Source of the DNA: Amphiscolops sp. MND2022
Lineage: Eukaryota
Length of the DNA stretch: 64,000 nt
Direction of reading: 5' to 3'
Assembly: GCA_964187785.1 (NCBI GenBank)
Contig: OZ076409.1
Span: forward strand, 66,094,001 to 66,158,000
In this document: piece by piece, positions 14,272 to 44,003 of the stretch
Numbering within the stretch: the stretch's first letter is position 1
Layout: every line of letters begins with the position of its first letter
Translations under genes and position numbers: made by a program
Notes under the pieces: generated by a model
The model's input: only the letters and a program-made list of their open reading frames with translations
Databases searched by the model: none
Told to the model about the DNA's origin: nothing

Positions 14272-14979
14272 AACATTCAATATGAAACTATTTAATTTCA
14301 CAAGGTAGTAAAATGCCCGAGGTATAAGAGCCGCTCCGAAGGCAATTGCGACCGAGGTTACCATACATTCATTCTCTAACTTACTGAGAGCTAACATTGC
14401 TCCTTAAGATTACGCTCTTGGCAGAGAACAAGTTTATTTTAAATTTTATATTATACTCAATCTCATCATTCAAAGAAAAAGTAATGTACCGTCCCTGGTT
14501 GGAATTGCTTGAACATTTTACACAATTTTGTAGGTTACCAAGCCAATTTTTCATGATTTTATAAATTTCTCAAGGAAACCTCCATGCATTAAAACATCAC
14601 TGATGCAATTTAAATCTGCCTAAATCTAAATTTAAAAAGCTGCCTATAAGATGCATCCTAAATTTGGCGGCAATTCTGAGCTGCGAAGTTTTGTAGGTTT
14701 CATAAAGACGCCGTTCTAATTTTGAAAGCAGCTGAGACCTTCGTCAATTTTACCGGCCTTGTTGAACATGCTTGAACTTTTTACATGTACTTTAATGTTG
14801 CCAGCTACTTTTATTATGATTTTCTAAATGTCTTACGGAATCTTTAATGCGTTAATATTTCCCTGTTGTCGCCAACTTTTATCAAGCTGCTTTAAAGAAT
14901 CATCAAAGTTTTGCCGGCAATTTCAAGCAGCGAAGTTCTGCAAGTTTCAATGCCCGTCCTAACGCGTACCCTCGAAGTT

Positions 14980-16837: not shown

Positions 16838-17057
16838 CTATGCACCAACATTTCGCTTTTTCAATTGGATTTTGTCCAGATACCCATAAGATGCGTCCTA
16901 AGTTTGGCGGCAATTCGCAGCCACGAAGCTTTGCACGTTTCATATGGAAGCAGTTCAATAGTCAAAAGCAGTTGAGAACTCATCAATTCTACCGCCGTTT
17001 GAAAGCAATTAAACTTCATTTTTTAGTCTAAAAGTACCTTCATGTTCAGCGTGCAAT
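16838..17057. repeat. Left copy of 220-bp direct duplication flanking the small Gypsy element
   Basis: Matches 22261-22480 with about 8 differences; abuts the LTR exactly. Confidence 0.9.
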
Positions 17058-20000: not shown

Positions 20001-22260
20001 ATTGGGCGTATTCCTGTTTGTGTTAGGTGATACCCTAACCACTCAACTTCATTTTGTGCGAACTTGCGTTTTTCCCATTTTAATCGTATGTTTGCTTCGT
20101 CAAGTTTTTCTAGTACTTGTTTTACTCGTGCGTAATGATCTGTTTGGATACCTTTGGTCAGTATTAATATGTCATCTAAGAAGACATACGTATTCGCAAT
20201 GTTGGAAAGTTTTTTATCCATAACTTTTTGGAACTCTGTTGGCATCATTGTGAGTCCATAGAACCCAGTGATGAAGCGGTATGTACCTGTTGCCTTGCCA
20301 CCTATTATTTGAAAATTACAGTGGCGTGCAATTTCTTCGTCTAACGGTACTGTGATTACAACTGGTTGGATAAATTGTTTATCCGTCACATCGGTTACTT
20401 TTTTGATGTGTCCTTCATTTAATAACCTTTCATTTTCTTCTTGTACCGCGTCTTGTAGTTGGATAGGAACTCGTCTACCCTTTTGTTGCGTTATTTTGGC
20501 TTCTGGTTTAAACTCAATTTTTACTGTATGATTGCGAATTTGTCCTTGTCTAGTGAATAAGGAGGAAAATTGGTTTTGTAATTATATCTTTTCGTTGTGA
20601 TTATCGTTATCACTCGAATCTTTTGAATTATTCTGTTTATTTGGTTGTTTAACATTTTGTTTAATTGTGTAAATAGCTTTGTTACCTTCACTTTTTGTTG
20701 GAGACACGAATTTGTAGTTGAACGCGTTCAGCCAATCACGTCCAATGAGTGATTTTGCGCCTTTGTCCGCAATCAGTATTCGCGCTTTATTTAGTTTGCT
20801 ATCACCAACTTCCAAATGGCAGAATATGTATCCCAATAATTGTAGTTTTCGTTTATTGAAGTCCACGTATTCTTCATCTTTTGGTAGTTCTCTAACGAAT
20901 AATGTTTTGCGCTTCATTATTTGTTTTATTTCATCGATTGCAAATATCGTTACTGGTGATCCAGAATCGACCATTGTTTGAAATGGGTTCCCATTGATCT
21001 TTCCTTTCATGGTGAACTGTCCACTTGTATCTCCTTCAATTGTGAGTACCACCTTCTCATCATCTACAATTGATTCTCCACTGCTTTCGCTCCATTCATC
21101 AATGCGTTGAATATGTTGTGGGGGTTTTGCTACTTTACGGCTTTTTGCAAATGTGCCTGCGCCTTTAGTTTGGCAACATCTAACGAAATGTCCTTTCTTG
21201 CCACATTTCATGCAAGTAACACCTAAGGCTTTACATTCCTTAAGGTGTTGAGGTGTGAATATTCCTTCGCATCTGAAGCACTTTTTGGTTGGGCCCCAAC
21301 GTTTATTGGTTTGGTTAATATTATTCACTTCCGCTGCTTCAGTTTTTATATTTGGTTTATCTAGCATACCAAACGATTGTTGTCTCAGTAAGCAATTGCG
21401 AATTGGATTGTTTCTGCTGCTGTTGCTTTTGGCTCAGTGCACAATTTTTGTTGTACAAATTGGTTTATCATGTTCACTGTGAAGACGTCTTTTACTAAGC
21501 TGTCTGTTATCGTGCCGAAATTGCATTTCGCTGCTAATCCATTTAATTCGTTCCAGAAGTTTCTCAATGATTCTCCTTCTTTTAGTTTTGAAGAATTTGA
21601 AGCGATCGAGGGTTTCATTCTTGGGTTTCTCAAAGCAATCTTTGCAGTTTTTAACAAATCTGGGAGTGACACTGTGGCAATATTGGTAGTGAGAAATTTG
21701 TCAGCAATTGATTTTCGTCCTGCCGATCCCAGAGCAAGGTAAAGTACGCTTATAGCTTTCTTTGTGGCTGGTATTTCGTCGAGATTACCCATTAAACTTT
21801 TGTCTTTGTTTCCCGTTTTTATTAATTCAGCAATGGATATGTTGTTTTTGGCCATTAATGCCACTTCAAATAAATCTCGCCATTTTTCCAATTCTAATGT
21901 AGGATTTTTAGATGCATCTTGCCAGTAAGTTGGAAGTTCTGCAATCGCTTGAGATCCTCCCGAAGATTCGGCTCGCAGCGCCATGTTTTAGGGTTTCTCT
22001 ATTCTCAATAATAGTTACTCTGCTTTAGGTAACAAGAGAGGGTTGAGCAAGATTCTATTCTCGATCTAGACCATGTGGCAAACTGATTTACTATCTTCAT
22101 TATGGTCTATAGTTTTGCTGGTACTATTGGCCAACATTGGTAACAACAAAGACAATTGACAAATGTATAAATGAACATAATATGATTGACAGTTTGTTTA
22201 CAGTTTGATTGTTTTTTAATTTAAGTTTCTTTTGACTTCTTTTGTGACAGCCCTGCCACA
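17058..22260 (-). mobile_element. Gypsy-type LTR retrotransposon, internally deleted/decayed (5.2 kb)
   Basis: 277-bp LTRs (21984-22260 and 17058-17334; TGTGGC..AAAACA on -; 4 differences), PBS TGGCGCTGCGAGC immediately after the 5' LTR, PPT AGAAGGAGGAG at 17335-17345. Confidence 0.93.
17417..21984 (-). pseudogene. gag-pol of the small Gypsy element (disrupted)
   Basis: gag with zinc knuckle CMKCGKKGHFVRCC, protease VDSGS, RT FLDD (part of RT deleted after PVVITV), RNase H CDAS/SDH, integrase H..HPG..CPEC and DDE core; several stops and frameshifts. Confidence 0.9.
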
Positions 22261-22480
22261 CTATGCACCAACATTTCGCTTTTTCAATTGGATTTTGTCC
22301 AGATACCCATAAGATGCGTTCTAAGTTTGGCGGCAATTCGCAGCCACGAAGCTTTGCACGTTTCATATGGAAGCAGTTCAATAGTCAAAAGCAGTTGAGT
22401 TTTCATCAATTCTACCGCCGTTTGAAAGCAATTAAACTCCATTTTTAAGTCTCAAAGTACCTTCATGTTCAGTGTGCAAT
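22261..22480. repeat. Right copy of the 220-bp direct duplication
   Basis: Matches 16838-17057; begins at the first base after the LTR. Confidence 0.9.
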
Positions 22481-23182
22481 TTGACTAACGGTGATTACAT
22501 AAGCTGCGTACTTGAGAAATTAACACAGAAAAACAAAGTGATAGAGATGGTAAAGAAGTAGAAACACTTTCAATTGTAACTCAAATAGTGGCAGCTAATT
22601 AATTCTATGAAGTTCTTCCAAGCAGACTCCCGGAATTTTCTATCCTCTGTTCAAAAAAACATTGCATGCATGGAAGCAGCATGAAAAACTTCACAGCTGG
22701 TTCAACTAGGAAGCCTTTTAGATATTTCAGAAGACTGCACTTTTTGAGTTTCAAGCGCGTGCCAACTTTAGATTTTCCCGTATAGTCTTTTGGGAACGTG
22801 AATGAAATCAAAGTTTCTTTTCACTTCATCGATCCGTGATTTCGAAAACGAAAATTTGCTAATAAAAGTTGAATTATAACATATGAAATCGCAGGAATGA
22901 TATCTAAATACATCAGGAATATGATCTAAAATCACTAGGAATATGATCTACAATCAATTTTAATATGATCTAGAAGCACTGGAATAATTTCTAAAATCAC
23001 TAGGATTAAGATTTGAATAAAATTATTCGTTATTTATCCTTGTAGTTTGAAAATGGGTCGGACATTGTCGATATATGAGACTGTAATTATTTTTTGAATT
23101 TTTCCCAACTTCTTATACGTTTATTTGAGAAAATAAATGTTGCAGCATCACTGTCTCTTCCTCTTCAGCGGTGTTATGACAG

Positions 23183-26762: not shown

Positions 26763-26937
26763 GGTCAAAAACATCGATGCGAAATTCTTTTGACCGATAT
26801 CAAAAACTTTGTTCGGAATGGGAATGTTGTCATTGCGAGTATATACCACGCCAACGATGCAGCCAAAAACAGGTCACTGTACACCTCGACTGACCTGGGT
26901 CAAATCTGGAATAGAGCTCAGGTGCCTATTTTTGAAG
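26763..26937 (+). CDS. VPS10/sortilin-family gene, exon 5
   Basis: TTCAG|GQKHRCE...LYTSTDLGQIWNRAQVPIFE G|GTGAGC; Asp-box STDLGQIW; phase 0/1. Confidence 0.87.
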
Positions 26938-27193
26938 GTGAGCTTAAAGGGTGCAATTAATTAAAATAAGCCATAACATTACCGAAGATCCTTACTGATA
27001 TTCAGACTCTTCATTGTAAATAATAAATTATCAATCGTTCAATCAAAAGAAGCATTAGATATACGTAATGTCAGCTATCTACGAATGTTAAATGGTCAGC
27101 CACTACAGTTTCTGAAATGATTATTAAGGCATTTGAAAACCAAAATACTCAATCACCAATTGAAGTCATTTATAATTTTCAAATCAAATCCGA

Positions 27194-28670
27194 TGTCGCA
27201 GGCTGCCGCCTGCGATGGCCTGACATACCAGATCACTCCAGAAGGTGATATGACAGCGCCTCTACCCGGAGTACTACCCATATAGAAGAGACTTAAAACA
27301 CTCAGAAACAATTTCACTTAGTTATATATTTTAATATTTTACTGATATGATAAATAATCTGATCATTGTGAGCAGTTTAACTACAATTGTTGACCTAAGG
27401 TCAACTTGACGGCATGTGCTTACTTGTGAATATAGTATTATTATTTAACAATACATTATGTTATTTATGTTATAATCCACCAGTTGTGAACTAGTAATCT
27501 AACGTGTAGCTAATTGTTTGCTGTTAGTGAAGTATAAATAATTCTGAGCAAGTGCTAATGTAAACTGACAATAAAGTAGGAAACGCGTTCAACTGGTACA
27601 GCGCTGCCGTCAAGTTGACGCGTAGTCCGAATTGGCGTTAGCCAATCAAATTGCAGTTACTAATATTTTACTGCCGCCGCTTGGACCATTGGTCCATTTA
27701 GCTCAATATCGTTCTGATTGCATGAAATGTTATTGTTGTCATGTAAACTTTATACTTTGTTCATTGTTGTTACTATTTATAGAACCTATGACGTGTTGTC
27801 ACATGTAATCTCAGTTGCTATATTTAGAATTATGATGTAATAGTGATGTCATTACTATTTTTACCCTATGACACCCTAAATATTGAGTGTCATGCGGGTA
27901 GGAGTATATATACGAAAGCTCAGTTGCATTTAAATCAATCAATCAATATACCACAACCTCAATACGAACAATTCCGTTACAGTCCTTCAATTTGACAATC
28001 TATTATTGAACTAGATTTCCTTTTGATATGCCTTCAACTAGAAAGCAAAAAGCGAAAGAGAAACGCTCGAGACAATCTGACGTAATGTCGGATATTGAAA
28101 ACTTAGATGTGATGCTAGGGAATTATGCAAACAGTGATATTAGAGACCGAGATATTGTAGATCAAATAGAAATTGACCCTGAGTCAAGTAGACGGCAACC
28201 AGGTTTTGGTCAAGAAGAAAGTAACTATAGGTCTCAATTGAACACTAACTTGAGTGAGAATAGTGAAATCACTGTAGAAACTAGTAGAGCAATTAGTTCA
28301 GAAATTTCCTCACAAATGTCGAGAAAATTGGAAGAGATGAAGTCTGATTTAAATTCTCATATTTTGGAAGTTATAAACTCAGCCATTGATGAAAAGATAC
28401 TTCCTAGTATTGAAAATGTAATTGCAAACAAAAGGGAGACAAAAAATGCAAAATGGGACCTTCGGTCAGATGGACGGCATCCAGATAGGAATATCCAAAT
28501 GACTCAGAATTCGGACCTTGAGTCACATGGACGGCATAAAAGTAAATTTTGCCAGCAGGTCCAGGACTCAGGCGAGAACTTCCCTAAACTAATCGCAACT
28601 TCTAGTAACCAGAATAATCACTGTAGGGAAAATCCAAATTTCGATCAAAGTGATGATGAAGGTTACGACA
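27194..28670 (+). repeat. 5' LTR (1477 bp)
   Basis: Near-identical to 41775-43254 (about 10 substitutions and one 3-nt indel by eye); TATA-like TATATATA near 27905. Confidence 0.97.
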
Positions 28671-29818
28671 TGGTGACAGGAGCCAACCTTACCCCACATT
28701 TGGTCCCAGAATTCCTGACCGGACGGCCCATGCAATCCCGAAACACTATTCCCCTTCCAAATCCTAGCACTGACGATACGCTGGAAACAACCCTCCCAGC
28801 TCAGCAAAATCCAATTTCAATCAACACTCAGGAGACGCCCCGCGAACCTCCAGTCGACCCCATCAACCGTCTTGCAGATGTCATTATGGGGATGAACACG
28901 AAACAACCATCTCAAACTCTGATGGTACGCCCAGTCAGTACGACCACACTGACGTTTGACGGGAAATCTGAAAAGTTCGAACTGTTCGAAGATCTTTTTC
29001 ACACGATGATAAAGATGCAACCGGACATGACGGAAACAATGAAAATCAACCATTTTCACTCCCTGTTGCGCAAAAACGCGCTACAGACCTTTCGCAACAT
29101 CAATTCAACCAACAGAAAAACCCTAGAGGACATACTAGCAGTCTTCCGTAGGAAATATGTCAAACCCGAATCTCAGGCAACTGCCAAACACAAATGGAAC
29201 AAAATGGTATTTGATCCAAATACCATGAAATTGCCTGATTTCCTCGAAGAACTTAACCAAGGTGCTGAAAAAGCCTTTGGGGAACATGCCCAAGCAATGA
29301 TTGACAGTTTGCTTTATGCTAAACTACCACCTAAACTGAAACGTTCAGTTAACATGGCGCGACTTGAAAACGCTACGTATGAAGAGATTGTCACACATCT
29401 CGAACGAGAATTAGAACTGAATGGACTTGAGGAAGGTGACGACATTCACGTCCCCACAATGTCCACTGCCCCCACAGCAACACGACCGGGAACTGGTCTC
29501 CTTTCATCCGGCATCGACCCAAACATTACTTGCAATTATTGCAAAAAACCTGGGCACGTCAAAGATGACTGCCGCAAACTCAAAAGAAAGGAGGAACAAA
29601 AGCGCAATGGCGGACAGTATACGAAGAAAGAATATCCCAAATGTCCAACTTGCGACAAAACGAATCACCCGGCGGAACGGTGTTGGAAAGGCGCTGGAGC
29701 CCACCTCAAGCCCAAAAACCTCAAATTGGATAATTCCAAAACCGAGGAAACTCCGATGAGTCAAGATGACTCCAATAACAAACCCACTACTTCTATTCTC
29801 AAAAATTCAAAAAACTAG
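28028..29818 (+). CDS. gag: Gag (596 aa), starting inside the 5' LTR
   Basis: Capsid-like region (FDGKSEKFELFEDLF...) and two zinc knuckles CNYCKKPGHVKDDC and CPTCDKTNHPAERC; intact. Confidence 0.92.
   Translation: MPSTRKQKAKEKRSRQSDVMSDIENLDVMLGNYANSDIRDRDIVDQIEIDPESSRRQPGFGQEESNYRSQLNTNLSENSEITVETSRAISSEISSQMSRKLEEMKSDLNSHILEVINSAIDEKILPSIENVIANKRETKNAKWDLRSDGRHPDRNIQMTQNSDLESHGRHKSKFCQQVQDSGENFPKLIATSSNQNNHCRENPNFDQSDDEGYDMVTGANLTPHLVPEFLTGRPMQSRNTIPLPNPSTDDTLETTLPAQQNPISINTQETPREPPVDPINRLADVIMGMNTKQPSQTLMVRPVSTTTLTFDGKSEKFELFEDLFHTMIKMQPDMTETMKINHFHSLLRKNALQTFRNINSTNRKTLEDILAVFRRKYVKPESQATAKHKWNKMVFDPNTMKLPDFLEELNQGAEKAFGEHAQAMIDSLLYAKLPPKLKRSVNMARLENATYEEIVTHLERELELNGLEEGDDIHVPTMSTAPTATRPGTGLLSSGIDPNITCNYCKKPGHVKDDCRKLKRKEEQKRNGGQYTKKEYPKCPTCDKTNHPAERCWKGAGAHLKPKNLKLDNSKTEETPMSQDDSNNKPTTSILKNSKN
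28671..28682 (+). other. Primer-binding site
   Basis: TGGTGACAGGAG directly after the LTR end; resembles the complement of the 3' end of eukaryotic tRNA-Leu (TGGTGTCAGGAG). Primer identity is an inference. Confidence 0.75.
29809..29815 (+). other. -1 ribosomal frameshift heptamer A AAA AAC
   Basis: Immediately before the gag TAG; pol is in the -1 frame. Confidence 0.75.
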
Positions 29819-32800
29819 ATTTGCCACGACTCCAGATTAATGAAAAACTACTTGTCAGACAATATTTAATATCTGACCCTCCTACTATCTATTATACAGA
29901 ATATTATTCCTCCATTAAAGAAAATTCATCAGCTGACTGGCAGCAGCAGGTGAAACAAACTCCTACCAATTTACACAATTTGGACCTTCAGTCCAATAGA
30001 CAGCACTCTAACACTATGACTATTCGCACTCTTCCCCTCATAGATAACTATAATCCCTATTATCCCGACCCAGACTTTGGTTTCGACCCCTATTGGGACG
30101 TTCACATCTACAACCAGCATCATCTACACTTCTACAAAAACTTCACCAAAAATGCTGCAGATATCGAACCTGATCAACACCATATTGATCAGCTACAGCA
30201 TACCAAACTATCCATGGCCTCTGTGGACCCCTGGCAAAAGGGGCAGATTAACAACCACCCACCAATCCAGGAGGAAATCACACAAGAACTTCCACACAAT
30301 GGACCTCTGGTCACATTGACGGCAACAGTGGAAGAACGATATGTGAACACGCTGATCTCACGAAATGGTGAACCTGACTATGTCCCGTTGACAACCAACT
30401 TGGGGCTCAAATATAAACGACGCATGCTCTGCTTTCCAATGGATTTTGGCGAACTAACATTAGATGGCCTTGTAGACACGGGAGCCCTATCTAGCGCGAT
30501 CCCAGAAGCTGATCTACGTAAAATCCGATTACTAGCCCCTCAGTCCATAATTAAAGAGGGCCCAGCACCCAACTTCCAAATTATGGTAGCTAATGGACAG
30601 CTGGAGAATCCAAAGAGCACCGTTGAACTCAAATTCGAGGTCGGGGACTTCGATTTCCATGAGATCTTCATTGTTATGGAAAAACTTACAAGTCCGCTCA
30701 TTGGTCTCTCGTTCCTGCAACGGAACAATACCATATTGGACATGCGACAGGGAATCTTAAACTTTCCATTCTTTTCCATGCAATTAAAAACAGCTGACCA
30801 TAAGTACACCAATGTCATGGAACCTATCTGTGCGCGGGAGGACATAACTATTCCCCCCAATGACAGACATATGGTCTCCATGTCCTCACAACTATATGAC
30901 GACACAAACGTCACCGGAATCCTTCAACCGAGCAATGACCTTGCAGAAGATGGTGACATAACCTTCTGCGCTGCTCTCGTCACACTGACCCAAGGTCAGG
31001 TATCGATCCATGTCAAAAATTTCACTGACCAGCCATACACCATCAAAAGAGGCTCGCACATTGCAAATTTCTCTGTTCTCACCCCAGAACAAATGAAATA
31101 CGTCAAACCCATTGACCCAGTAACCACCTGGCACTTTTTGAAAGATAATCCGGAAAATGCTGCATACTATGCCAGTAGCCTCATCAAATCCCCGAAAAAT
31201 AGCGAAGACAGTCAGAACTATTGGTTCCCGACTCCAGAAGAACCAGTGGACCCTCAAACGCATACACCAATACAACAAAGAATCCTCAGGGAATTACGAA
31301 GCCTCCAGGATTTAGAGAAACTCAACCCCCAGGACGACCCTGAGTCCAGGAAACAGTTTCTTGCTAACTTTGACTGGACTGACTCAACGCTAAATCCGGT
31401 TGAAATTGCCCAAATTGAGGAAATACTTGTCGAATTTCACGACATTTTTGCAAGGCACCGCTTTGATATAGGAATGAACGAGGACTTCAAAGTCACAATG
31501 ACCCCAAAAGACGACTCTCCCGCCTACAGTCAAAGCCTACCTACCCCTATCAACCTCAAAGAAGACATTCTGTTGAATTAGCACTACTCCACCGCTATGG
31601 GATCATAACAACACTTCCGTTTTCCAAATATGCGAGCCCCATTTTTGCCCAGAAAAAACCTAATGGCAAATTACGACTTTTGGTTGACCTCCGAAAAATC
31701 AACAATTTGATCTTCGACGATAATATCAACAACAACCATCCTGTCAGCACATTAACGGATGCAGCGCAACACATTTCAGGCAAACGATTATTTTGCAAGC
31801 TCGACTGTTCTCAGGCATACCACTGTCTGCAGATGGCGGACCAAAGGTCCATAGAGATGTTGGCATTCAATTTCGCCAGTTGAACCTTTGCCTATCGCCG
31901 ACTTGCGCAAGGTCTGAGCCGAGCCCTATCAGCTTTCTCAAGTTTTATGCGTGAATACCTGGATAAAGTGATTAAAGCGGATCAATGTGCCCAATATGTC
32001 GATGACAGTGGGATTGCCGCCAACAGTGCCACTCAACTCATCAACAACTTGCGAGCAACATTTGCATGCATCAGGACCGCGGGTCTCAAATTAACGATGC
32101 ACAAATGTCACTTCGGAGCCAAAGAAATTGACTTCCTGGGACGCACCATCACTCCTGAGGGAGTGCGGCCGCAACGACCCAGGGTCCAAAACTTTCTGGA
32201 GAAAACGAATTTTCCGAAATCCAAAAAAGCTCTTCATCGATATTTGGGATTTTTAAACAACTACCGCAATTACATTCCACGGCTCTCTGAAAAGCTAACA
32301 CCATTCTTCAAGCTGTTGAAAAATGATTCCAAAGTCATGGTGACCCCTGAACTGTTAGAACAATTCACCGAGATCAACAAAGCTCTTGACCGATGTTGTG
32401 AACTCGCACTCAAACAACCTCTGCCCAACAAACAGATAGCCCTGATGACTGATGCTAGTTTTTCGGCAGCAGGTTATGCAGTTCTCATCGAGGATGATCC
32501 AATGGAAAAATATAGTTCAACGCGCAAAGCCTTTGCACCAGTAGCATATGGATCCAAGACCTTTAGTCCCGCCCAGTTGAAAATGTCCATCTATGCGAGA
32601 GAATTCTTAGCAATATTCTTTGCCTTCAGGGAGTTTGGACACATCTTCTGGGGGACCCCGACACCGGTGATCATTCTAACAGACAACAAATCAGTCACTC
32701 GCTTTTTTTTCAGACGAAAATTATTCCACCAACGCTATGGAACGCGTGTGACTACGTTATTCAGTTCAGCTTCACGATTGCCCATATACCAGGGAAAAAC

Positions 32801-34984
32801 AATACTGCCGCAGATTATTTGTCCCGTCTTGAAATCTGTCCTAACGAAAAACTTGTACTCCGCATACGAGAGGACATTCCAACTACACCCATTGAACTCA
32901 ATGTCCAATCAGCGGGAGTGACCGAAGAGGACCAGATATTCTACACGGACGACGAAGAAGAAACTGAGGAACAATTATGGCAAAGAAAAAAGGAAGCCAG
33001 GTCAAATCCTACAAATCAACTACCTGATATTACATTGGACAAACTCAGTCTACATAAAAGTACCCAAATCCAAACACCAACTTTGCAAAAACTAGCGAAA
33101 CCAATCACCATGGCTATTGAACAAAACAATGACATCACATTGCAACAACTACGCCTCAAATTACAAAAAGAAGAATACTCTGAAACCATCTTACAGCAGG
33201 ATCCACGTTACCGACATTACTGCCGTCAACTTGACCGTCTGTCCGTTCATGAAGATATCATCTACAGAGACTATTATGACGAAACCGGCAATGTCCAATT
33301 TCGCCAAGTGCTATTACCGAAACACCTTGTCACTGAATTACTTCAATCCTTACACGGCACTGCGAACAAACATCCAGGAATTTCCAAAATGCTTCATGAG
33401 ATACGTCAAAAATACTATTACCCAGGCGTTGCAAAAATTGTCAAAAAATGGGTCCAAGGGTGCGAAATCTGCATCCGAGACAAACGAATTGCCAACGCAT
33501 CAATAACACCCGAATTACTGAATTTGCCCGAATGGGACCTAGGTCCGGAAGACGCCTAACAAATAGACCTGTTACCGAACCTCCCACCCAGTGGAGGATA
33601 TGAAAACATCATAACAGCTTTAGACGTCTTCTCCGGATACCTTTTTGCATATCCTGTAACGGACGCGTCGGCAATCAGTACAGCAAAAGTTCTCATTGAC
33701 ATTATGACCCGACACACGTATCTACCAACGACACTTATCACAGATAAAGGAACGGCTTTTACGTCTCGCGTAGTAACAGAAGTAGCAAAAATTTTGGGCA
33801 TCACACTTCAATGTGCGACCACAAAACATCCTCAGACCAAAGGTAAACTAGAGAGAACCCATGCCAGCCTCAAAGGAAACCTCAAAATGGCATCAGGAGA
33901 GTACAGGCGCCAGTGCCATAAATACCTCCCTTTGGCTGTCCTTAATTACAATACAACCTACCACTCTAGCCTAGGTTGCGAGCCATCTAGAATTTTTCAT
34001 GGCAGAGTGCCTTATAACATCCTGGACCATCGGTTAGGTTTGAACCCCAATCCAAAAATCATACCAACAACCGACTTTGCTGAAGAACTACAACGCCGCA
34101 CTCAAAACCTTATTGATAAAACAAAGAAAAACATTATGCAATCATACTTAAAGTACAAAGACTATTACGATCGGAAGGCTAAAGCAGCTCCCTTAGAACA
34201 AGGAGATTTTTGCTTCATTTTACAGCCACTAGCCGATCATCAGGGTTCTAAAATCCCATTTCGAGAATTTCGATGGATCGGACCATATGTCATCGAAAAG
34301 GTCCTTCCTAACGAGAATTATAATATGCGCAAACTGAATTCTAACAAAACGCAGATTTTACACCGAAAACGCCTTAGGAAATATACTCCAAATACTACAT
34401 TACAAGATACTCGCCCTGAAGGAAATTTACAAGCCGATGATGAAATTATTATCCCACAAGACGACCTGTACATTATTTCATGGGAAAGCAATTTTGATGA
34501 TTTCCCTCCTAGTACTGAACAGCAAATCAATCCTAACGATTCTCCTACTCATTTTAATGAACAAGACGCTATAATCACAGATTTGGACCTTCGGTCCACG
34601 CGGCGGCAAGAAAATACTGACGCTGCGGATACTGATTCACACTCGCGTGAAGTAGCTGAAGCGGACCTTCGGTCCGCGCGACGGCAAACAAATACTGAAT
34701 CTGATAATTTTGAACAAGACGCGCGTGACCAAACTACTGAAGACCGTCAGTCCACCCGACGGCAAGAAAGTACCGAATTTGAAAACGATGAAATAGTTAA
34801 TCAAGACTCGTCTGTTGATGAAAATTCTGATTATTCAACTTATAGGGGGAATGATACAACCGTGCCCGATGTATTAAACGAAGAAACTGATGATTGTGTT
34901 GTAGAAAACGAAAGTCCTAGGGGAGGGAAATATAACTTACGCCCCAATCCTACCCCCAACTTTACTGATGAATACAGATACTAG
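29815..34984 (+). pseudogene. pol: Pol (protease, dUTPase-like remnant, RT, RNase H, integrase), disrupted in this copy
   Basis: LVDTGA, LDCSQAY, YVDD, TDAS, TDNKS, H..HPG..CEIC, integrase core. Lesions: 1-nt deletion near 31571, TGA 31881, frameshift in T-run near 32703-32710, TAA 33557. Confidence 0.93.
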
Positions 34985-35226
34985 TCAGAAAATGTAAATT
35001 CACTGGCCCGTTGCATTCTTTTTCTCTCCTCTTACTGACACTGACTGTCAAATTATTTTTTTCATGGGCCCTATCTGACTTTAAGTTTTCAATGCAGACT
35101 CAAACACAAGTGTCAAAATGACACAACTATAAAACAGACACGAAAACAACTCAAACAAACTCAAAAGAAACGAACAAATTAACAGATACATAAATACAAC
35201 TAAAAACAAATGTACATATGGCACAA

Positions 35227-38200
35227 TTAAACGTCTTTAGTCGATGAGCTAGTAGGAAGTTCACTATCAGATGGCCGTTTGACAGGGGAGGTTTTGGCAC
35301 TAGATGAAGGAAGACTTTTTGAAACTTTGCCGCCCTTTAGTCCTTTGAACCGCAGTTTACGAGTGTCACCTTTCTGCTTCACCAAAACAGGATGTAATGT
35401 TGCAAGGATTTCTGTGCGGTTGAACAAGTCTAAGCCGTCCCAGGGACTGTAGGTGTCTGTAAAAGCTGAACCTCCAAATGTAGGCTCGAAAGCCAGAAAG
35501 TCGCTGATTGGAGTGGCAGTGGTAAGAGCATCGACACTACGCCCAACATTCATGAAGAAAGATTGGACAGGCAATATTGTATCAATCAGCTTACTTTTGG
35601 GGTCATCTTCACGGACGAGTCCGAACTTCACTGGAGGCATGGCACTGTAACCCTGATCAAGGCAGAGGCAACTGAGTTTAAAGATCCGTGCCAAATGAGG
35701 ACGTGACAACAAAGTAACATGTCCAGATTTGAATGCAACTGCATCAAGAATAATGACCCTGGGTTGGTCTAAGTCAGGGTACTCTTTTCGAAGTTCATCA
35801 AGGAAGGACAAATACTCTTCAGTGCAAATGGATTCGTCGTCGGCTTGATAATATCCACGCACATGAAAACTACGAAACAACTGCTTAAAACAATACAGGG
35901 CCTGGCTAAGAGGGGAACGAAATATAATATCGAGATCAAAGGAGCCCATTCCCTTTACTATATCCGAGGTCAGCTGTAAATTGCTCTGGGCAGCATGAAA
36001 CAAGTATGCAACGTAGCTGCGGCCTAATCGTCCGAATTCCTCTTTGCCTTGGTTTACCAATTTGGGCAAATTGGCTCTACTGGTCTTCTTCTCACTCAGC
36101 TCCTTCTCAGCCTTAATTTTACAAGCAGTATTGAGGCGCTGATCGAGTTTACATCTGGTTATAAAATCAGGGACGGACAAAGCACGAGCATCTGAGACTG
36201 ACACGCCGAGGATTCCAGATAAGTCAGTTTCTTGGGGCAAGCTCTTGGCCTTGATGCATTGTCTTCCGAGTTTAAACAGAAATTGACAAAGTTGGCAATA
36301 AATATGGAACCCGTGGTCCCGACGTTCAACAAGATGTGGTACGAAACTTGTTGTATCTAAATAAACATATTCCACCATATACAAGAGGACGATTTCATTA
36401 ACCATTCAACCAAAGGGTAATACTAACAATCTCTAACGAGGCGATAAAATAGCTCCAGTCGGCACAGAAACAATTCATCTTGTATCATGGCTCGTTCCAA
36501 GTTTTGGGGCTTAAAACAACAATTAGCCTAATTAAAACGGAGTAAGTTGGACCTAAGGTCATTACGACGGCAAGAACTTACCTGTTTCCTCACTCCCATC
36601 ATCTCATGTGGAGGAGCGTGTTTGTTCAAGTATTCAAGTACCTTGGGCCAATTGGTAAGCAGCTCTTGACATAAGGTGGGAAGCTTCGCCAACTCAATCT
36701 GACAGGTGCGCACAGCCTGGAAAGAGGAATTTATTGAGTCGGGTGAATACTTCTGGCCTACGAAAGAGAAAGAAAGGACATTACCTTAGCAAGTATGGGT
36801 GTCATGAGGGTCCAGTCGCAGTCCAAGCAGCCGCCCAGAAAAATTATGAGGTATTTCAGCACCGAGTGGAAATCTATGCGTCCAAAGACGCTATAACTCT
36901 CCTTATGCATCAATCGGGCAATTGAAAACTCCTCGAATCTGAGGGGGCGCTGAAGTCCATACTTGAAATAAGGAAAGTTGTCAACCAGCTGCACTGTTTC
37001 AAGGGTACTACCAGAACAGCTGACGAGATTCGGACTGGTAGACAGAGCAGCCATGACGTAACTGATCAGGCACTGTTCCGCTGATGACTGGCCAAGGACT
37101 CTACCGGTTCGCTTGAGAAAGACTAGACAAAGTTCATCCTTTCTCCAAAAGCGTATGAAGACGAGCAGGAACACTCCCTGCTTGACAAAGTCCAGAGAAT
37201 ACTCGTCGGAAGCTACTACGTGTTCAGCAATGTCACGGATAGTTAGGAGGAACAGATGATGGAACAGAGCCTGGAAAACACGACCCCAGTGTTACCATAT
37301 GCGAAAAGCAAGATTTAAACCAACTAAGATGACTTAAGGTCAGTAGGAACAGAGGAAGTACTAACCGACAATCGTTCTTTACTCCAGTTGAAGTCGGTGA
37401 AGAGCGACTGGTGGTTCACGATGACGCCGACGTCTCGCCAGAAACTCTTCAAAATACTGATATCACCTTGGCTTCGGAGGTAGTTGCCAAGAACAGATAT
37501 CTGGATTCGTACACGATTCTCTGACGAAGATGCCATGTAATCGGTACCCTGGATATATTCATCGTAAAACGGCAACTTCTCGCCTATGTCCACGAGTTGT
37601 TCTTCAATGAAATAGGGCAGTTCTAGCTGAAGCTCAAAGGGTGTGAGCAATTTACCGTCTCTTCCTCGGACATGGTGCTTGACGACCTTGGTGATCGGAT
37701 CTTCAGTTGCCAGATGTTCATAACGCCACCTCTGGTCTTTTCTGAGATGACGTTCGGTAGCATGATGTCTCAGAATCTCTCGTGCCCCACGACCGTAAAT
37801 GGATATGTTGCCCTTACATATCTGACAATAAAATTTGTAGGGGTTCCACCGAGGGTCAACGGGTCCCGACACAAAGGTCTTGGTCCACTCCATTCCCTTG
37901 AAGTAGGCTTCTTTCATTATTTTGCACCCCCGAGGCACTCGATGTCTACTTGGCCCAGAATTGCGGGTTGGCGTCTTCCTTGATTTTTTCTGTCTCACAA
38001 TTTTGGTTTTCTCAGCCACAGCTTCAGCCTTCAACCCAGCCAACGTTTGTGCCCCAGGACTCTCAAGTTGGTTAGTAGCGTCAAAAGACCCAAGGTCAGC
38101 TCGACTGCAACCTGGTGGGCCTGCGGGAGGTGGAGTAAATGGATGACTCTCTGAATCTGAGTGCTCATAAGAGTATCCGATGCTGGCAAAGTCATCAGTG

Positions 38201-39501
38201 CTTTTGATAGCGCCACTTGTATCGCTGCCATGATCTGATAAAAACCCAGATTGGGATTCTCCGCCGCTGACTCGATCTACAGACTTTCTTGGCTTGGTGT
38301 TGACACCTGAGTTCAGATGAGGGGTCCCGAGGTTAAGCCTACCAGCTTGCTGGATTAGGTTCTCCATGACTTTGAGTGACGATTTGACGGCTTCGTCTGC
38401 GACAACCTTCAGGACATGACAAACCTGTCCTTCATTTAAGTCTAACGTTGAGTGCCCAGCTGGCAATTCTACTGGAGTAGCGGCTTCAAAATATTCCTTT
38501 ATTAGCGCACGACTACTGGCACTCAATTGAGGATCTCGTGGTACCGCTTCAGGGAAATCTACCGAAGTATTGCTAGCTGTATCGCATACACTGAATACGT
38601 TTGCACTAGTTGGGGCAAACAATGCATCAGCAACGGTAGATCCAACGAGTCCTTCCGAATCCTGTCCAACGTCACTACAGATTCGGGCAGGCGACTTTGG
38701 TCTGCGTTTGTCCCCGGAATGAGGAGCCCGAAAATCATCTGAAAACTCATTTTCACTCTCAGTCAGGGTTGGACGTTCCATCTGATCTGCGGCAACAGAC
38801 AAAACTCGTGATTCATTCCCCAGCTTGATGCTAAGTTTTAGAGCCTTCGCCTCAGGGGGCCCGTATCCGGATTCTAGATTGCTTTTAAAGGGCAACTTTG
38901 GGGCATCGAGGAAGGCAACTTCGGACACGGAATCGGTCTCCATCTCCTCCTGCCTTGCGACATCTTGACCGGGAGCAAGCTCAATCGCAACGCTTTCGCT
39001 AAACTTGTCAGCAGTGCCGCCACCTTGACTAGAAGTTCCCACTTCTGCAGAACAGCCCAACTGTGCCCACTTCCTGACAATATATTCTCCGCAACTCTCA
39101 TCAGTACTGCTACTTTCAACAAGGAAGCTCCCTGCGGTGAGGACGGGAGTGGTGTTGTCTCCAGACACAACGTTGGTCGGTCCACTAGAGTCTAGTTGCA
39201 TTTGACTGGAGTGTGGGTTTTCCACGAGCAAATCCTCTTGCGTGGCCTCAGACTCTGGATTAGTGGGGCTGGCAGCGACAAACTCTTCTGGGTTAGCAGA
39301 GTTGGGGCTTTCAAGATCTAAATTGCAAGCCGGGGCATCTCCAGTAAGTGGTCTCTCAGAGTTCGATGCTGCAGTCACAAACGAATCATTACTATCCATC
39401 CTTTCCTCATCAATACTGCGTCGGGGAGGTTGGTCATTTGACTCATTGCCTAAACGGAATGAAATAAATAAACGCGGTTCACTTCCTGAATATGAATCCA
39501 T
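35227..39501 (-). CDS. Antisense five-exon gene (~1322 aa): acidic N-terminus, BED-like zinc finger, degenerate hAT-transposase fold
   Basis: Exons 39501-37366, 37270-36785, 36716-36582, 36509-36428, 36356-35227 join through four GT-AG introns (95, 68, 72, 71 nt; phases 0,0,0,1) into one uninterrupted 3969-nt frame. Zinc finger FYCQICKGNISIYGRGAREILRHHATERH. Confidence 0.85.
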
Positions 39502-40284
39502 CTTGCCGCTTTAAAACAAACTCTTCCGGAAGTTCACTTGATACAATGTTCATGCTGACAGCAAACATTTCACGATGGAGGAAGTAACTTAGTTGAAATT
39601 ATGAGCTCTGATCAAGCCAGATTTTAACACCATTTAAAGAACCAACCTGTTGTTGAATCCATAGTTGATTAGCAGAATTGATGTGACCCGCGAATTGCGT
39701 ACTGTTGTTCATCGGGTAAACTGATTCGATGACTGTGTCTCAAGTACTCTCCTGAATGATGATTGAGCCGGTTACTGTTGAGATAACCCAAGCGGACTGC
39801 GAGACTGTCAGTTGAGGAAGAAAACAGATCTTCAGAACACCCAGTAAGGTAGCGAAACGCAGAGCAACACTAAGAATTTGAATTAAGACAATTAGCTAAT
39901 CAGGTTGCTTTCCTGCCGGGGATTTGGTGAACTGCGAGAAAGATGTATTTGTCAAAATGTAACCCGAGGTCAGAGAGACAATCCTGATCACTAGGTAATA
40001 CAGTTTAGCTCAAGTGATACTTCACGAGGAAACAAATGACGTAGGAGTAAGGTTCAAATACAGCAACACAAGGTAGTGGACTCAACGTCAACCTGACGGC
40101 AAAGTATTACTAGTTCACAATCAAGTGTTATTTAACCATTGCGTGCAAATTAGACTATGAGTCATTCAGACGGCATGACGTTTATTGTTACCGGATGTAC
40201 TTCTTTCTCACTTACACTACTCTATGAACACTCCGTTGACTAATTACTAGTTCTTACCATCAACTTAGAGTCTAAAATTCCTCA

Positions 40285-40402
40285 ATATTACTATTAATAT
40301 TATTATCATTATCATTGTTATCATTATCATTATTTTTATTATTATTACTATAAAAATAGTTATTATTACTGTTACGATTACAATTATGTCAATAATTATT
40401 AT
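40285..40402. repeat. AT-rich (ATT/ATC/ACT)n low-complexity tract between the divergent accessory genes
   Basis: Imperfect trinucleotide run attattatcattatcattg... Confidence 0.7.
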
Positions 40403-40870
40403 TTGGATGTCGTGGCTACATGTAAGACTCTCTTTAATGCTACCATCTCCTACTTGTTGCTTTAATCAAGCTCTCTTATTACAAGTACATGGTATGGAAC
40501 CTGCCAGTGAAATATTCATGAACTTCACAATTCGTTGTTTTATTCCTTTTCATCACTTTCCCCTAAAAACACATCAAATTGCTTATCTCATTCTCCATTC
40601 ATGTAATTATTTGACAAATTTTGCCAGCTATTTTAGCATCACCTGATTGGCTATGCTATCATCTTTACTGCCGTCGAAGGGACCGACGGTCTTTCAAGTT
40701 ATTTGTTGAATGAGAATTATCGGAGACAACACTTAAATTGTCAAGTGACGCCTTTGAAGAATGAAATAAAACAACTTGAAGAGGCTATTAACAAGCTTCA
40801 CAGATTAATTGCTTGAAAATTATTTGAGACTCTGCTCTTAATCGAAACCTAAAAAGGAAAACTTGAAACT

Positions 40871-41866
40871 ATGATTCGGGGAAAAACCCCACTACCAACT
40901 CCCGCCAAAATTGGGGTTGGACCTAAGGTCAGACGGACGGCAAAAGTTTACTTCTCATCCTACCGTTCTGAAAATCAGTCGCCTAGAATTCAAGCTAGCA
41001 AAATTGCGAAAAGGATATTCCTCAATCGATACAACGCTGAGATGGCTCTACAATTCAACTGCGAATTACTTCCCAGATCGCTAGTGGATCCAAGCTACCA
41101 GTCGTCAGATGAAGATATGGACGTCGACTCCATAATTTCCGCTGACGATATTCTAGATGCTAACGGCGAGGACGACGATATACAAGTTTTGGCTTGCTAC
41201 CGATACAATACTGAATTCCCTCCACAATTAGCGGCAGGAAGGGCCATGACAACCGAGCTAACTGAATGTCTCAACGATCTTAACTTGCCCATCAGTGAAC
41301 CCACTGAATCAGTGAGTACGTTTACAGAACCCTCAAATTCATTGATTGATTGGTTCGTTGGGAATCCACCCCTCACATATTATGGGCAATCTGCTAGTGA
41401 CTACCCTATTGCTCAATGTAGCAGATTGGAACCGGTCCCTAAATCTCCGCAGTCTCCGCCACTGTTTGACCAAAGGCCAACTTACGACAGCCTGCAAGGG
41501 GCAGAAATGCCATTTGGATCAAGCTGGTCCGATAACCCACACATAACTGGTTTAGGCATCAGCACTAGCGGGAACTGCGGACAACCAAACGAAGTTTATT
41601 ACACAGGCTGTGTTGTCTGTGGGAAAGACTACCCGGCAATTAAAGAAGAGATCACCCTTGGCTATTTAGAGAAGACACACTTCCCGGGCGAACCATACGA
41701 GTCAAGACTAGCCAAGCGCAATGCCTTCGAAGCAGGAATGAAGGCTGGGTCCTTCATTCTCGTACCCAGGGGAGTGTCGCAGGCTGCCGCCTGCGATGGC
41801 CTGACATACCAGATCACTCCAGAAGGTGATATGACAGCGCCTCTACCCGGAGTACTACCCATATAG
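40871..41866 (+). CDS. Sense accessory ORF of unknown function (331 aa; alternative start 41042), ends inside the 3' LTR
   Basis: Open frame with an acidic segment and a CVVC motif; no signal peptide or transmembrane segment, so not env-like; last 92 nt lie in the LTR. Confidence 0.7.
   Translation: MIRGKTPLPTPAKIGVGPKVRRTAKVYFSSYRSENQSPRIQASKIAKRIFLNRYNAEMALQFNCELLPRSLVDPSYQSSDEDMDVDSIISADDILDANGEDDDIQVLACYRYNTEFPPQLAAGRAMTTELTECLNDLNLPISEPTESVSTFTEPSNSLIDWFVGNPPLTYYGQSASDYPIAQCSRLEPVPKSPQSPPLFDQRPTYDSLQGAEMPFGSSWSDNPHITGLGISTSGNCGQPNEVYYTGCVVCGKDYPAIKEEITLGYLEKTHFPGEPYESRLAKRNAFEAGMKAGSFILVPRGVSQAAACDGLTYQITPEGDMTAPLPGVLPI
41768..41774 (+). other. Short polypurine tract
   Basis: AGGGGAG directly before the 3' LTR. 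Confidence 0.6.
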
Positions 41867-43254
41867 AAGAGACTTAAAACACTCAGAAACAATTTCACTT
41901 AGTTATATATTTTAATATTTTACTGATATGATAAATAATCTGGTCATTGTGAGCAGTTTAACTACAATTGTTGACCTAAGGTCAACTTGACGGCATGTGC
42001 TTACTTGTGAATATAGTATTATTATTTAACAATACATTATGTTATTTATGTTATAATCCACCAGTTGTGAACTAGTAATCTAACGTGTAGCTAATTGTTT
42101 GCTGTTAGTGAAGTATAAATAATTCTGAGCAAGTGCTAATGTAAACTGCCAATGAAGTAGGAAACGCGTTCAACTGGTACAGCGCTGCCGTCAAGTTGAC
42201 GCGTTGTTCGAATTGGCGTTAGCCAATCAAATTGCAGTTACTAATATTTTACTGCCGCCGCTTGGACCATTGGTCCATTTAGCTCAATATCGTTCTGATT
42301 GCATGAAATGTTATTGTTGTCATGTAAACTTTATACTTTGTTCATTGTTGTTACTATTTATAGAACCTATGACGTGTGGTCACATGTAATCTCAGTTGCT
42401 ATATTTAGAATTATGATGTAATAGTGATGTCATTACTATTTTTACCCTATGACACCCTAAATATTGAGTGTCATGCGGGTAGGAGTATATATACGAAAGC
42501 TCAGTTGCATTTAAATCAATCAATCAATATACCACAACCTCAATACGAACAATTCCGTTACAGTCCTTCAATTTGACAATCTATTATTGAACTAGATTTC
42601 CTTTTGATATGCCTTCAACTAGAAAGCAAAAAGCGAAAGAGAAACGCTCGAGACAATCTGACGTAATGTCGGATATTGAAAACTTAGATGTGATGCTAGG
42701 GAATTATGCAAACAGTGATATTAGAGACCGAGATATTGTAGATCAAATAGAATTTGACCCTGAGTCAAGTAGACGGCAACCAGGTTTTGGTCAAGAAGAA
42801 AGTAACTATAGGTCTCATTTGAACACTAACTTGAGTGAGAATAGTGAAATCACTGTAGAAACTAGTAGAGCAATTAGTTCAGAAATTTCCTCACAAATGT
42901 CGAGAAAATTGAAAGAGATGAAGTCTGATTTAAATTCTCATATTTTGGAAGTAATAAACTCAGCCATTGATGAAAAGATACTTCCTAGTATTGAAAATGT
43001 AATTGCAAACAAAAGGGAGACAAAAAATGCAAAATGGGACCTTCGGTCAGATGGACGGCATCCAGATAGGAATATCCAAATGACTCAGAATTCGGACCTT
43101 GAGTCACATGGACGGCATAAAAGTAAATTTTGCCAGCAGGTCCAGGACTCAGGCGAGAACTTCCCTAAACTAATCGCAACTTCTAGTAACCAGAATAATC
43201 ACTGTAGGGAAAATCCATTGGATTTCGATCAAAGTGATGATGAAGGTTACGACA
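41775..43254 (+). repeat. 3' LTR (1480 bp), containing a duplicate of the first ~215 gag codons (ORF 42609-43259)
   Basis: Direct repeat of 27194-28670. Confidence 0.97.
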
Positions 43255-43467
43255 TCTGATCTAATATAAATAATAAACAGATGACATAAGGAAAACAACC
43301 GTTTCTCATTGTAAAAAACTTTGAATAAATGAGAGTAAAAAACTTCTCATTTGAAACGGTTATATGAATCAAAGTCAAATCCAGCTGGAAGTTTTTTCCA
43401 TCAGAATGTAAAATTACTTAATATGGATGAAAAAGAATTCATTGAGTATTCAGACCTTTGTTCGCAG

Positions 43468-43731
43468 GTCATCATAAACCCTATGTTTACTTGCTGTCCG
43501 ATAAGCTGTCATTTCTCACTTTGATTGACGAAGATGAAAGTTGCTATGACTTGTACGTGTCAGATTCCCAACATGTGTCTTATTCTTTGAGTCTGAAATG
43601 TCTGTATGAACAAAGAACTCCCGTGGGAAGATTCGGCGTGGAAAAGTTGGGAGACCTGGAGAATGCTTATGTTGTGAACAAAATAGAGGAACCTGGAAAG
43701 CCTCCAAGAATGATGGTGACTCTTAACAATG
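43468..43731 (+). CDS. VPS10/sortilin-family gene, exon 6
   Basis: CGCAG|..YDLYVSDSQHVSYSLSL..YVVNK..MVTLNN G|GTTGGT; matches the VPS10 LYxSDxxxxxF/YSLSL signature; phase 1/1. Confidence 0.9.
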
Positions 43732-44003
43732 GTTGGTAGTACTGTACTTCATCATTTAAGCATGCAAAATTCATCTTTACATTGTTGCAATTTGTATCCT
43801 GGAAACTGTCGTCCTTGCGTTTTGCAAGAGTTGCAACCATGATGTTTCTGTAAATGAACGAAGAATATTTTTTATCATCACCCCAATGGTATTTAAATAT
43901 TGCTTCATTTAGGATGTCTAACTTTTGAATTTATTTCGGACACCAACTCTAATCCGATCCGAATTGTAGTGATGGATGTGTTAAAAAACTTTTTTTCTTT
44001 CAG

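Follow-up and report, generated by a model that had tools for sequence, protein, structure and literature searches.

The window, a stretch of 64,000 nucleotides from Amphiscolops sp. MND2022, contains at 27194-43254 an element with LTRs about 99% identical, a target-site duplication, gag, pol, an antisense gene and a second ORF. The 5' and 3' LTRs differ by 11 substitutions and 3 gap columns over 1480. The TG...CA LTR termini, the short target duplication and the protease-RT-RNase H-integrase order are features of Ty3/Gypsy elements; a dUTPase sits in pol between protease and RT. Duplications of 5 bp were also found at 7 of 8 other copies checked (six perfect, one with a mismatch). A single element bounded by LTRs and a target-site duplication, carrying gag and pol, had been proposed in an earlier sequence-only reading. 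This was confirmed, with pol of the window copy broken at four places (frameshifts at ~31570 and ~32710, stops at 31881 and 33557). The features are listed below; motif sites refer to the spaced motif GAC-n5-GTC-n5-GACGGCA.

27189..27193, plus strand: left target-site duplication, TCCGA
27194..28670, plus strand: 5' LTR, with the gag start inside and six motif sites (27390+, 27605-, 27672-, 28173+, 28455+, 28512+)
27901-27919: conserved TATA-like block within the 5' LTR
28028 (ATG) to 29818, plus strand: gag, open, with a zinc knuckle; start within the LTR
28671..28688: probable primer-binding site, beginning TGG
29779..34984, plus strand: pol (protease-dUTPase-RT-RNase H-integrase), with eight motif sites
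34584, 34662, 34740: pol motif sites 78 bp apart, in the integrase tail
35227..36356, minus strand: predicted antisense exon 5, 375 aa; motif site 35433-
36428..36509, minus strand: predicted antisense exon 4, 27 aa plus 1 nt
36510..36581, minus strand: predicted antisense intron 3; motif site 36548+
36582..36716, minus strand: predicted antisense exon 3, 45 aa
36785..37270, minus strand: predicted antisense exon 2, 162 aa; modelled RNase H-type sheet
37366..39501, minus strand: predicted antisense exon 1, 712 aa; motif sites 38085+, 39015-
39502..40852: non-coding region between the divergent accessory ORFs; three motif sites (40077+, 40151+, 40669-)
40853..41866, plus strand: orphan ORF X, 337 aa stop to stop, last 30 codons within the 3' LTR; motif site 40918+
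41775..43254, plus strand: 3' LTR, six motif sites; short purine tract just before it
43255-43259: right target-site duplication, TCTGA, 5 bp, one mismatch to the left copy

No tRNA gene matching the primer-binding site was found in the window, and the element has no env-like Pfam match and no env-like ORF that we could see. ORF X, already noticed as a second orphan ORF, contains an acidic block and a conserved CxxC and is retained clade-wide, including in distant families. A Pfam search with it gave no match, and it has no hydrophobic segment (maximum hydropathy 0.8). The region between the accessory ORFs contains conserved blocks without codon periodicity, which are candidate internal promoters. 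Extra coding exons at 39.5-40.9 kb were considered and rejected, as codon periodicity is absent and the frames shown contain stops.

The antisense gene is predicted to comprise five exons encoding 1,322 aa. The gene is intact, its exons stop-free in frame with GT-AG boundaries and consistent phases. Splice sites are kept across 8 copies while the introns diverge. The intact spliced antisense gene of the sequence-only reading stands as a five-exon prediction, and we infer that it is spliced and expressed. Exon 1 starts with a conserved peptide followed by an acidic S/T/P-rich region of 500 aa. It also contains a conserved helical block (aa ~323-395), a basic stretch (aa 501-535) and a C2H2/BED-like finger (CxxC at aa 559, H579, H585) followed by a helical domain. 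Exon 5 encodes an all-helical domain and then a low-confidence tail. The N-terminal FISFRLG-like peptide is kept in distant families. We also considered a KLSIKLG-like peptide, presumably a BET-protein recruiting motif, as a BET recruiter; this candidate was dropped, as distant families have not retained it.

The clade is very abundant, with at least 150 matches in each search for its members. Of 148 close RT copies, at least 127 are followed within 3-12 kb by a listed zinc-finger exon that lies on the strand opposite to RT; none of the 148 has a listed one on the same strand, and 20 have no listed gene. Other copies might have lacked the 35-40 kb region, but all ten whole elements fetched carry the antisense gene, as do all three partly fetched distant elements. 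Families with 46-70% zinc-finger identity retain it, and it has the same place and orientation in families whose integrases are 37-58% identical in the part compared. Between the window and four main-family copies, the conserved antisense exons have pS of 0.71-0.94 and dN of 0.06-0.16, which indicates purifying selection on the gene. An unrelated Gypsy element in the window has no such antisense gene and no spaced motif above shuffles.

To characterize the antisense protein, we compared structure models and sequences with known transposases. The modelled protein consists of a zinc finger, an RNase H-type fold and an inserted helical part, with high confidence for the CxxC...H...H finger. In Pfam comparisons, the finger matched a C2H2 family below cut-off and zf-BED in 1 of 44 members (E 0.0099). 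Matches of the models were at Z 5-7, a level rated common by the comparison tool: the exon 2 sheet matched RNase H folds (Z up to 7.0, rmsd 3.5, 86 aligned), exon 5 weakly matched the C-terminal half of Hermes (367-575: Z 5.0, rmsd 4.5, 152 aligned; 364-609: Z 5.0, rmsd 6.3, 169 aligned), and ISCth4, which we take to be Mutator-like, matched the N-terminal half (Z 5.2, rmsd 6.9, 159 aligned). Neither protein model had a Foldseek match at E 0.001. Language-model neighbours (Atlas) were hAT-type, mostly DUF4371/FAM200, with a top score of 0.93; the family matches listed were DUF4371, FAM200-ZBED5, ZBED1 RNase-like, DUF659 and zf-BED, and a search with exon 5 found nothing above 0.79. Alignment by hhalign to one Ac/ZBED1-type hAT profile (61 sequences) gave probabilities below 1%, like controls. 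Pfam and PDB sequence searches with the protein found no transposase, and no DUF4371/FAM200-type subgroup was found in the genome. A search for long relatives of the finger region (1247-3560 aa) found none; later, 440 relatives were found, as were 80 relatives of exon 5. A metagenome scan found no relative. The captured hAT transposase of the sequence-only reading thus draws support from the Atlas neighbours and the weak fold matches and none from the profile comparison, and we consider a hAT origin likely.

The protein does not show the intact DDE triad and CxxH motif of an active hAT transposon. The end of strand 4 in exon 2 is S or T, with no acidic residue, in 22 of 22 sequences, and the invariant His122 has no Cys three residues before it. 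With catalytic positions assigned from the model and by analogy, without significant alignment, the second catalytic acid is apparently absent, which suggests loss of catalysis. Among 56 short inverted repeats found, two weak pairs enclose the gene (75% over 24 nt; 83% over 18 nt).

The motif occurs 28 times in the element, 22 times outside the 3' LTR and six times within it, and has no site in the ~48 kb flank, in agreement with the more than 20 copies first noticed and none outside. In a leave-one-out analysis the sites scored 16.6-34.5 bits, while the best score in the 47.9 kb flank was 7.6 bits; 100 dinucleotide shuffles gave a mean of 0.27 sites and a maximum of 3. Of the 22 sites, 14 are on the plus and 8 on the minus strand, and 15 lie in coding sequence. 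Neighbouring sites are nowhere more than 1.6 kb apart in the element, both LTRs included, with clusters upstream of the TATA-like block and in the interval that separates the accessory ORFs. Its reported presence in the LTRs and in an intron of the antisense gene also proved correct; at the intron 3 site, the core is retained and the spacer is free in aligned copies. Silent third positions in motif cores were identical in 39/42, 38/39 and 29/33 cases, compared with 65%, 61% and 58%, respectively, in the 90 bp either side. Spacer third positions were also somewhat conserved (20/25). These comparisons indicate constraint on the cores at the DNA level.

We then asked whether the motif is equally common throughout the genome. 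Among the first 100 exact matches listed, 84 lie within 12 kb of a listed antisense-gene copy, a zone making up 0.36% of the span examined. Of the other 16, all five fetched proved to be fragments of this clade, from its LTR or pol. By these matches the motif is not common outside the clade, and the sequence-only reading withstood both this check and the one on other copies.

Based on sequence comparison, each of five sampled families has its own motif variant, one of them tentative. The L030 motif was not above shuffles in an unbiased triplet test. In distant families the geometry is kept and the letters are changed in all half-sites together, GAC/GTC becoming GGC/GCC. With the window model, 22 sites are found in the window element itself, 17 in family '1726', 2 in L031, 1 in L030, and none in the L029 family or the flanks; the L029-family model finds 9 sites at home and none in the window element. 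Exact matches over the whole genome, set against controls with the pattern reversed, numbered 1554 vs 2, 8787 vs 764 and 1310 vs 271. In '1726', RT has a dS to the window of 0.84, compared with 0.87-1.05 in four other copies, whereas its antisense exons are 44-68% identical to the window vs 77-91% in those copies. Only 1 of its 24 sites ends in GGCA, compared with 14-18 of 20-24 in seven other elements. ORF X identity is 58-62% in '1726' and 58-64% in families with GGCA retained. Between families with different motif tails, RT identity is 96%.

Between families, the motif differs along with the antisense protein. However, the deep GAC/GGC split agrees with the integrase tree just as it does with those of the zinc finger and exon 5; it is therefore a single event that shared ancestry alone could explain. 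The '1726' contrast is likewise a single event, and both points weigh against the model favored below. The L031 finger loop (YGKGAREIL) is almost the same as that of the window (YGRGAREIL) while the third motif module differs, so the code cannot be accounted for by the finger on its own. In the pair L009/L010, one copy has swapped in a synonymously saturated antisense gene with the motif unchanged; the swapped-in protein is still ~76-79% identical.

These patterns suggest that the antisense protein probably binds the motif. By analogy with VANC, we slightly favor a model in which this element-encoded protein coats copies of its own element and either promotes or protects their expression. The Ty3/Gypsy clade would descend from an element that took up the gene of a cut-and-paste transposase, probably a hAT, and retained it antisense, an orientation that would keep introns from being lost when the sense genomic RNA is reverse-transcribed. 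The captured protein would have lost catalysis and kept its zinc finger and transposase scaffold. An oligomer could then bind the three-part site, with two inverted half-sites and a third half-site, recurring along the element, in both LTRs and around the gene's own probable internal promoter. By coating copies of its own family, the protein may promote or protect transcription in trans via its long acidic region, and families would have drifted to different protein/site pairs. More broadly, it is possible, if on balance doubtful, that the clade domesticated a DNA transposase for VANC-like, sequence-specific anti-silencing outside plants, with private addresses along the whole element, own oligomeric readers and no cross-activation.

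The protein might instead bind the motif for another purpose, such as repression for copy control or coating of cDNA (nuclear entry, end pairing, integration), which we consider rather unlikely. All evidence for binding applies equally here, the sites extend over the whole element and its coding sequence rather than promoters only, and a transposase scaffold fits DNA bridging. Host-domesticated transposases silence LTR elements in fission yeast. The clustering of sites near putative promoters and the long acidic region speak against this purpose, and the abundance of the clade, weakly, fits a helper better than a brake.

It is improbable that the motif serves host transcription factors, the integrase or the ORF X protein, with the antisense protein unrelated to it. 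The motif classes do track the integrase tree at depth, ORF X is itself clade-wide and conserved with a CxxC, and the GGTCA-like half-site presumably resembles nuclear-receptor sites. Nevertheless, over the part of the genome examined the motif is found within the clade only, and its half-sites change together between families; the near-identical RT of families with differing tails and the even divergence of ORF X also speak against this reading. A hairpin in RNA or single-stranded DNA, acting in packaging, dimerisation or reverse transcription, is very improbable: the first two half-sites are complementary and the change to GGC/GCC would keep pairing, but sites occur on both strands, 62 of 134 unique sites have a complementary pair adjoining the 3-bp core vs 55.7 in shuffles, outer pairs are not enriched, the enriched 5-7 pair (56 vs 36) would close a 1-nt loop, and there is no Rfam match. 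That the gene is a nested DNA transposon or functionless passenger, as its transposase-like fold and the two enclosing inverted pairs might suggest, is largely refuted by its constant place and orientation, purifying selection at saturated synonymous distance, and motif sites within its introns and exons.

The clade bears on why LTR elements carry antisense accessory ORFs: it offers both a protein and a site as candidates, and does so in several natural variants, which makes the question directly testable. If the self-targeting model is true, a class I element has recruited a class II transposase to regulate itself, and VANC-style self-targeting extends beyond plant DNA transposons. It may then help explain the clade's hundreds of copies or more in the 1.07-Gb genome, and the protein/site pairs would be a natural set for studying change in BED-type recognition. 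We found no published description of such an arrangement in the open literature searched, mostly at the level of abstracts. The available main text of a paper on an LTR-rich invertebrate genome does not mention Gypsy (PMC9911081).

Parts of the arrangement resemble known systems. LTR retrotransposons of bdelloid rotifers, also animal elements, likewise have a dUTPase within pol and have acquired additional ORFs, but ORF3 there is env-like, a GDSL esterase or a DEDDy nuclease, and the available part of the account describes no DNA-binding gene or target motif (PMC5408684). Plant Retand (Tat) elements are likewise Gypsy, with a long region between pol and the 3' LTR and lineage-wide antisense TRP28/Transposase_28 ORFs predicted to bind DNA. 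A regulatory role was proposed for these and their role called unknown (PMC11963269). Antisense ORFs with a transposase-named domain thus have precedent there. The element here has no match to TRP28 (PF04195), while no introns, full transposase fold or dispersed co-varying site are described in the part of the Retand report available, where repeats are tandem arrays (PMC11963269). Like the protein proposed here, foamy virus Tas is a DNA-binding activator encoded by a retroelement, with one target in the LTR and one at an internal promoter, the latter driving its own gene; as far as that source goes, it is sense-encoded in an env-containing retrovirus, and there is little sequence in common between the two targets (PMC7390438).

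As modelled, the antisense protein runs from the finger and a helical domain through an RNase H core and a helical insert to a C-terminal part, an order found in hAT transposases such as Hermes. In the portion of the study available, three BED domains of Hermes bind a quasi-palindrome plus a third repeat, the geometry of the motif here (PMC10368747). Unlike hAT transposases, the protein has no detectable match to the hAT profile compared and has the acidic N-terminal extension, its gene is inside an LTR element, and its sites do not adjoin terminal repeats. A further parallel is VANC of Arabidopsis VANDAL (Mutator-like) transposons, for which binding and demethylation are proven (PMC5735166). 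VANC is reported to be structurally related to MAIN (PMC13547354), whereas the antisense protein is, as modelled, not VANC/MAIN-like but a finger with an RNase H transposase fold. VANDAL is a plant DNA transposon and the element here an LTR retrotransposon; according to the published account as available, VANC motifs are 8-9 contiguous bases in non-coding tandem repeats (PMC5735166), compared with a spaced, three-part, dispersed and mostly coding candidate site here. In both systems, an element-encoded protein is found with a short motif accumulated in its own element, and related families have different proteins and motifs (PMC5735166).

The 16-kb Gypsy retrotransposon at 27194-43254 (the window element) has the anatomy described by the sequence-only reading, with LTRs and a target site duplication (TSD) enclosing gag/pol, an antisense spliced gene, a second ORF and a repeated motif. 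This anatomy characterises a large clade and not just a single insertion.

Features of the window element (each exon is open, GT-AG bounded and in phase)
27194-28670, plus strand: 5' LTR, TG...CA ends
41775-43254, plus strand: 3' LTR, TG...CA ends
39501-37366, minus strand: antisense gene exon 1
37270-36785, minus strand: antisense gene exon 2
36716-36582, minus strand: antisense gene exon 3
36509-36428, minus strand: antisense gene exon 4
36356-35227, minus strand: antisense gene exon 5
40853-41866, plus strand: ORF X, the second accessory ORF

Over 1480 alignment positions the two LTRs show 11 substitutions plus 3 gap columns, and the TSD reads TCCGA on the left and TCTGA on the right. A 5-bp target duplication could be read in 7 of 8 other copies checked. 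The LTR is protein-coding at both ends because gag begins inside it and ORF X stops 30 codons into the 3' LTR. ORF X retains a CxxC and a C-terminal motif down to about 28% identity. The pol gene has the Gypsy domain order with a dUTPase placed after the protease, and is broken four times in the window copy. The element lies between two probable host-gene exons in the same orientation (26764-26919 and 43484-43739, plus strand), the downstream one with a weak Sortilin-Vps10 match (E 0.00016, below cut-off).

In the 1.07-Gb assembly, each of three different queries with the exon encoding the zinc finger of the antisense protein returned at least 150 genome matches. Using one query's matches plus 95 further rows from another, we found that at least 127 of 148 close reverse transcriptase matches were followed, 3-12 kb downstream, by a listed finger exon in the opposite orientation, and none of the 148 had one on the same strand among the matches listed. 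One of the other 21 was fetched; it has the gene, with its finger exon broken. Other copies do keep the antisense-gene region: the gene and ORF X were present in all 10 whole elements fetched, and also in three partly fetched distant elements (finger identity 47%, 49% and 70%). One copy had a pol dS of only 0.02-0.08 to the window element, yet its antisense gene was saturated; the gene also moves as a cassette.

A window-family copy was inserted within gag of an element from a distant family in this clade (L025/L026/L029, G000:C3:10.956-10.986 Mb), another copy (L019) has an internal duplication covering some 3.6 kb of its antisense region, and two copies stood in tandem around a common LTR (L011/L012). 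At G000:C1:33764114-33770303, the spacing of just 5 kb between two LTR-type motif pairs points to an internally deleted copy, which would need the antisense protein in trans.

The five antisense exons, with splicing predicted from sequence, encode 1,322 aa. Across 8 aligned copies, exon differences fell mainly at third positions and introns had diverged; the finger region and exons 2, 3 and 5 had pS of 0.71-0.94 and dN of 0.06-0.16 against four main-family copies. Established retroelement biology suggests how the gene could retain its introns: lying in antisense, they would not be recognised when the sense genomic RNA is spliced. Intron 1 is absent from some relatives (P0017; G000:C7:35763707-35765473), and their exons 1 and 2 are therefore contiguous.

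In exon 1, a conserved N-terminal peptide is followed by a long acidic S/T/P-rich region, in which one helical block is conserved, and then by a basic stretch and a CxxC...H...H finger. The model of the natural relative P0017 consists of the finger, helices and then a mixed sheet that resembles RNase H folds, including integrase cores (Z up to 7.0). Foldseek listed, at E about 0.1-0.2, the transposases Hermes and ISCth4. The exon 5 model has a confident helical domain (residues about 10-230). Its longest match (Z 5.0, rmsd 4.5, 152 aligned) fell in the C-terminal half of Hermes, which ranked 14 in that structure comparison and 1 of 74 in another. The proposed dead-hAT identity was partly sustained: fold matches and the protein language-model neighbours, which were hAT-type where they had a family assignment, favour it, but no transposase match was found by Pfam, PDB sequence or profile-profile search. 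We consider a hAT origin probable, and a DDE-transposase origin more so. Catalysis has likely been lost, by positional analogy, because strand 4 ends in S or T in 22/22 sequences; strand 1 retains its acid (E in 20, D in 2), and there is one His that does not vary.

The motif GAC-n5-GTC-n5-GACGGCA occurs at 22 sites outside the 3' LTR (14 on the plus strand, 8 on the minus; 15 within ORFs) and 6 inside it, with neighbouring sites at most 1,537 bp apart. In line with the first notice, no site was found in 47.9 kb of flank, and shuffles averaged 0.27. An exact pattern had 1554 genome matches compared with 2 for the control. The motif is not common genome-wide outside the clade: of the first 100 of these matches, 84 had a listed finger exon no more than 12 kb away, and 5/5 fetched from the other 16 matched the clade's LTR or pol. 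Silent positions in the motif core were conserved at 39/42, 38/39 and 29/33 against 65%, 61% and 58% in the neighbourhood, the three comparisons having common ancestry; spacers were likewise somewhat raised (20/25). The motif is constrained at the DNA level. A hairpin found no support in a sequence test.

The control was an unrelated Gypsy-type element of 5.6 kb (16838-22481, minus strand), which has LTRs and a broken pol; neither an accessory gene nor a spaced motif was found in it. The window also contains a LINE (10549-14403, minus strand; ORF1 with a PHD-finger, open 945-aa endonuclease-RT ORF2), long inverted arms at 53549-54102 and 55900-56469 (up to 339 nt, 89%), which are related to the stretch at 14757-14949 and are probably non-autonomous DNA transposons, extended simple repeats (ATAGA/TATTC) around 55.3-57.3 kb, and a dispersed repeat that recurs many times in either orientation at 44.3-50.8 kb and 60.3-64.0 kb and contains words like AAAGGGTCCCC and CGGCACTGTGAGAC.

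Five families were sampled and each had its own motif variant.

Motif variants by family
Window-type: GAC-n5-GTC-n5-GACGGCA
'1726': GAC-n5-GTC-n5-GACYnnA
L031: GAC-n5-GTC-n5-RGCnnCA
L029 family: GGC-n5-GCC-n6-GGCCT
L030 (tentative): GGCC-n6-GGCC

The L030 motif showed no excess over shuffles in the triplet test; its palindrome occurred 5 times against 0.14 expected, the control element scoring similarly for another word. Motif models barely detected each other's sites between distant families, but those of the window family and '1726' did detect them. The latter is the best contrast, with a pol distance like that of other copies and a much more diverged antisense protein; the GGCA tail was present at 1/24 of its sites, and seven other elements had it at 14-18 of 20-24. 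GAC families have YG[RKQ]G as their finger loop and the two GGC families have [HK]SKG, and in L031 the third motif module has changed with the loop almost the same. Gene and motif co-occur; their co-variation comprises two or three independent changes, and the deep split follows the integrase tree too.

The best explanation, which we favour by somewhat more than an even chance, is that the antisense protein binds the motif with an activating or anti-silencing effect. That it binds the motif in another role is a good deal less probable, binding by something other than this protein is slightly less probable again, and all remaining explanations together are improbable.

Plant Retand elements are reported to carry antisense ORFs whose domain bears a transposase name (PMC11963269), and LTR elements of bdelloids, among animals, a dUTPase and extra ORFs (PMC5408684). 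A spliced, full-length, apparently dead transposase gene in an LTR retrotransposon, combined with a site that is dispersed, family-specific and constrained, was not found in the open-licence papers searched. Three Hermes BED domains, contributed by three protomers, are reported to bind a palindrome plus a third repeat with strict spacing (PMC10368747), and the motif of the window element has the same palindrome-plus-third-repeat layout. The motifs bound by VANC proteins have accumulated in the elements that encode these proteins, and they differ between related families (PMC5735166). Foamy virus Tas targets the LTR and also an internal promoter from which its own gene is expressed (PMC7390438); in the window element, three motif sites precede a conserved TATA-like block and another three lie in the conserved non-coding region separating its two accessory ORFs.
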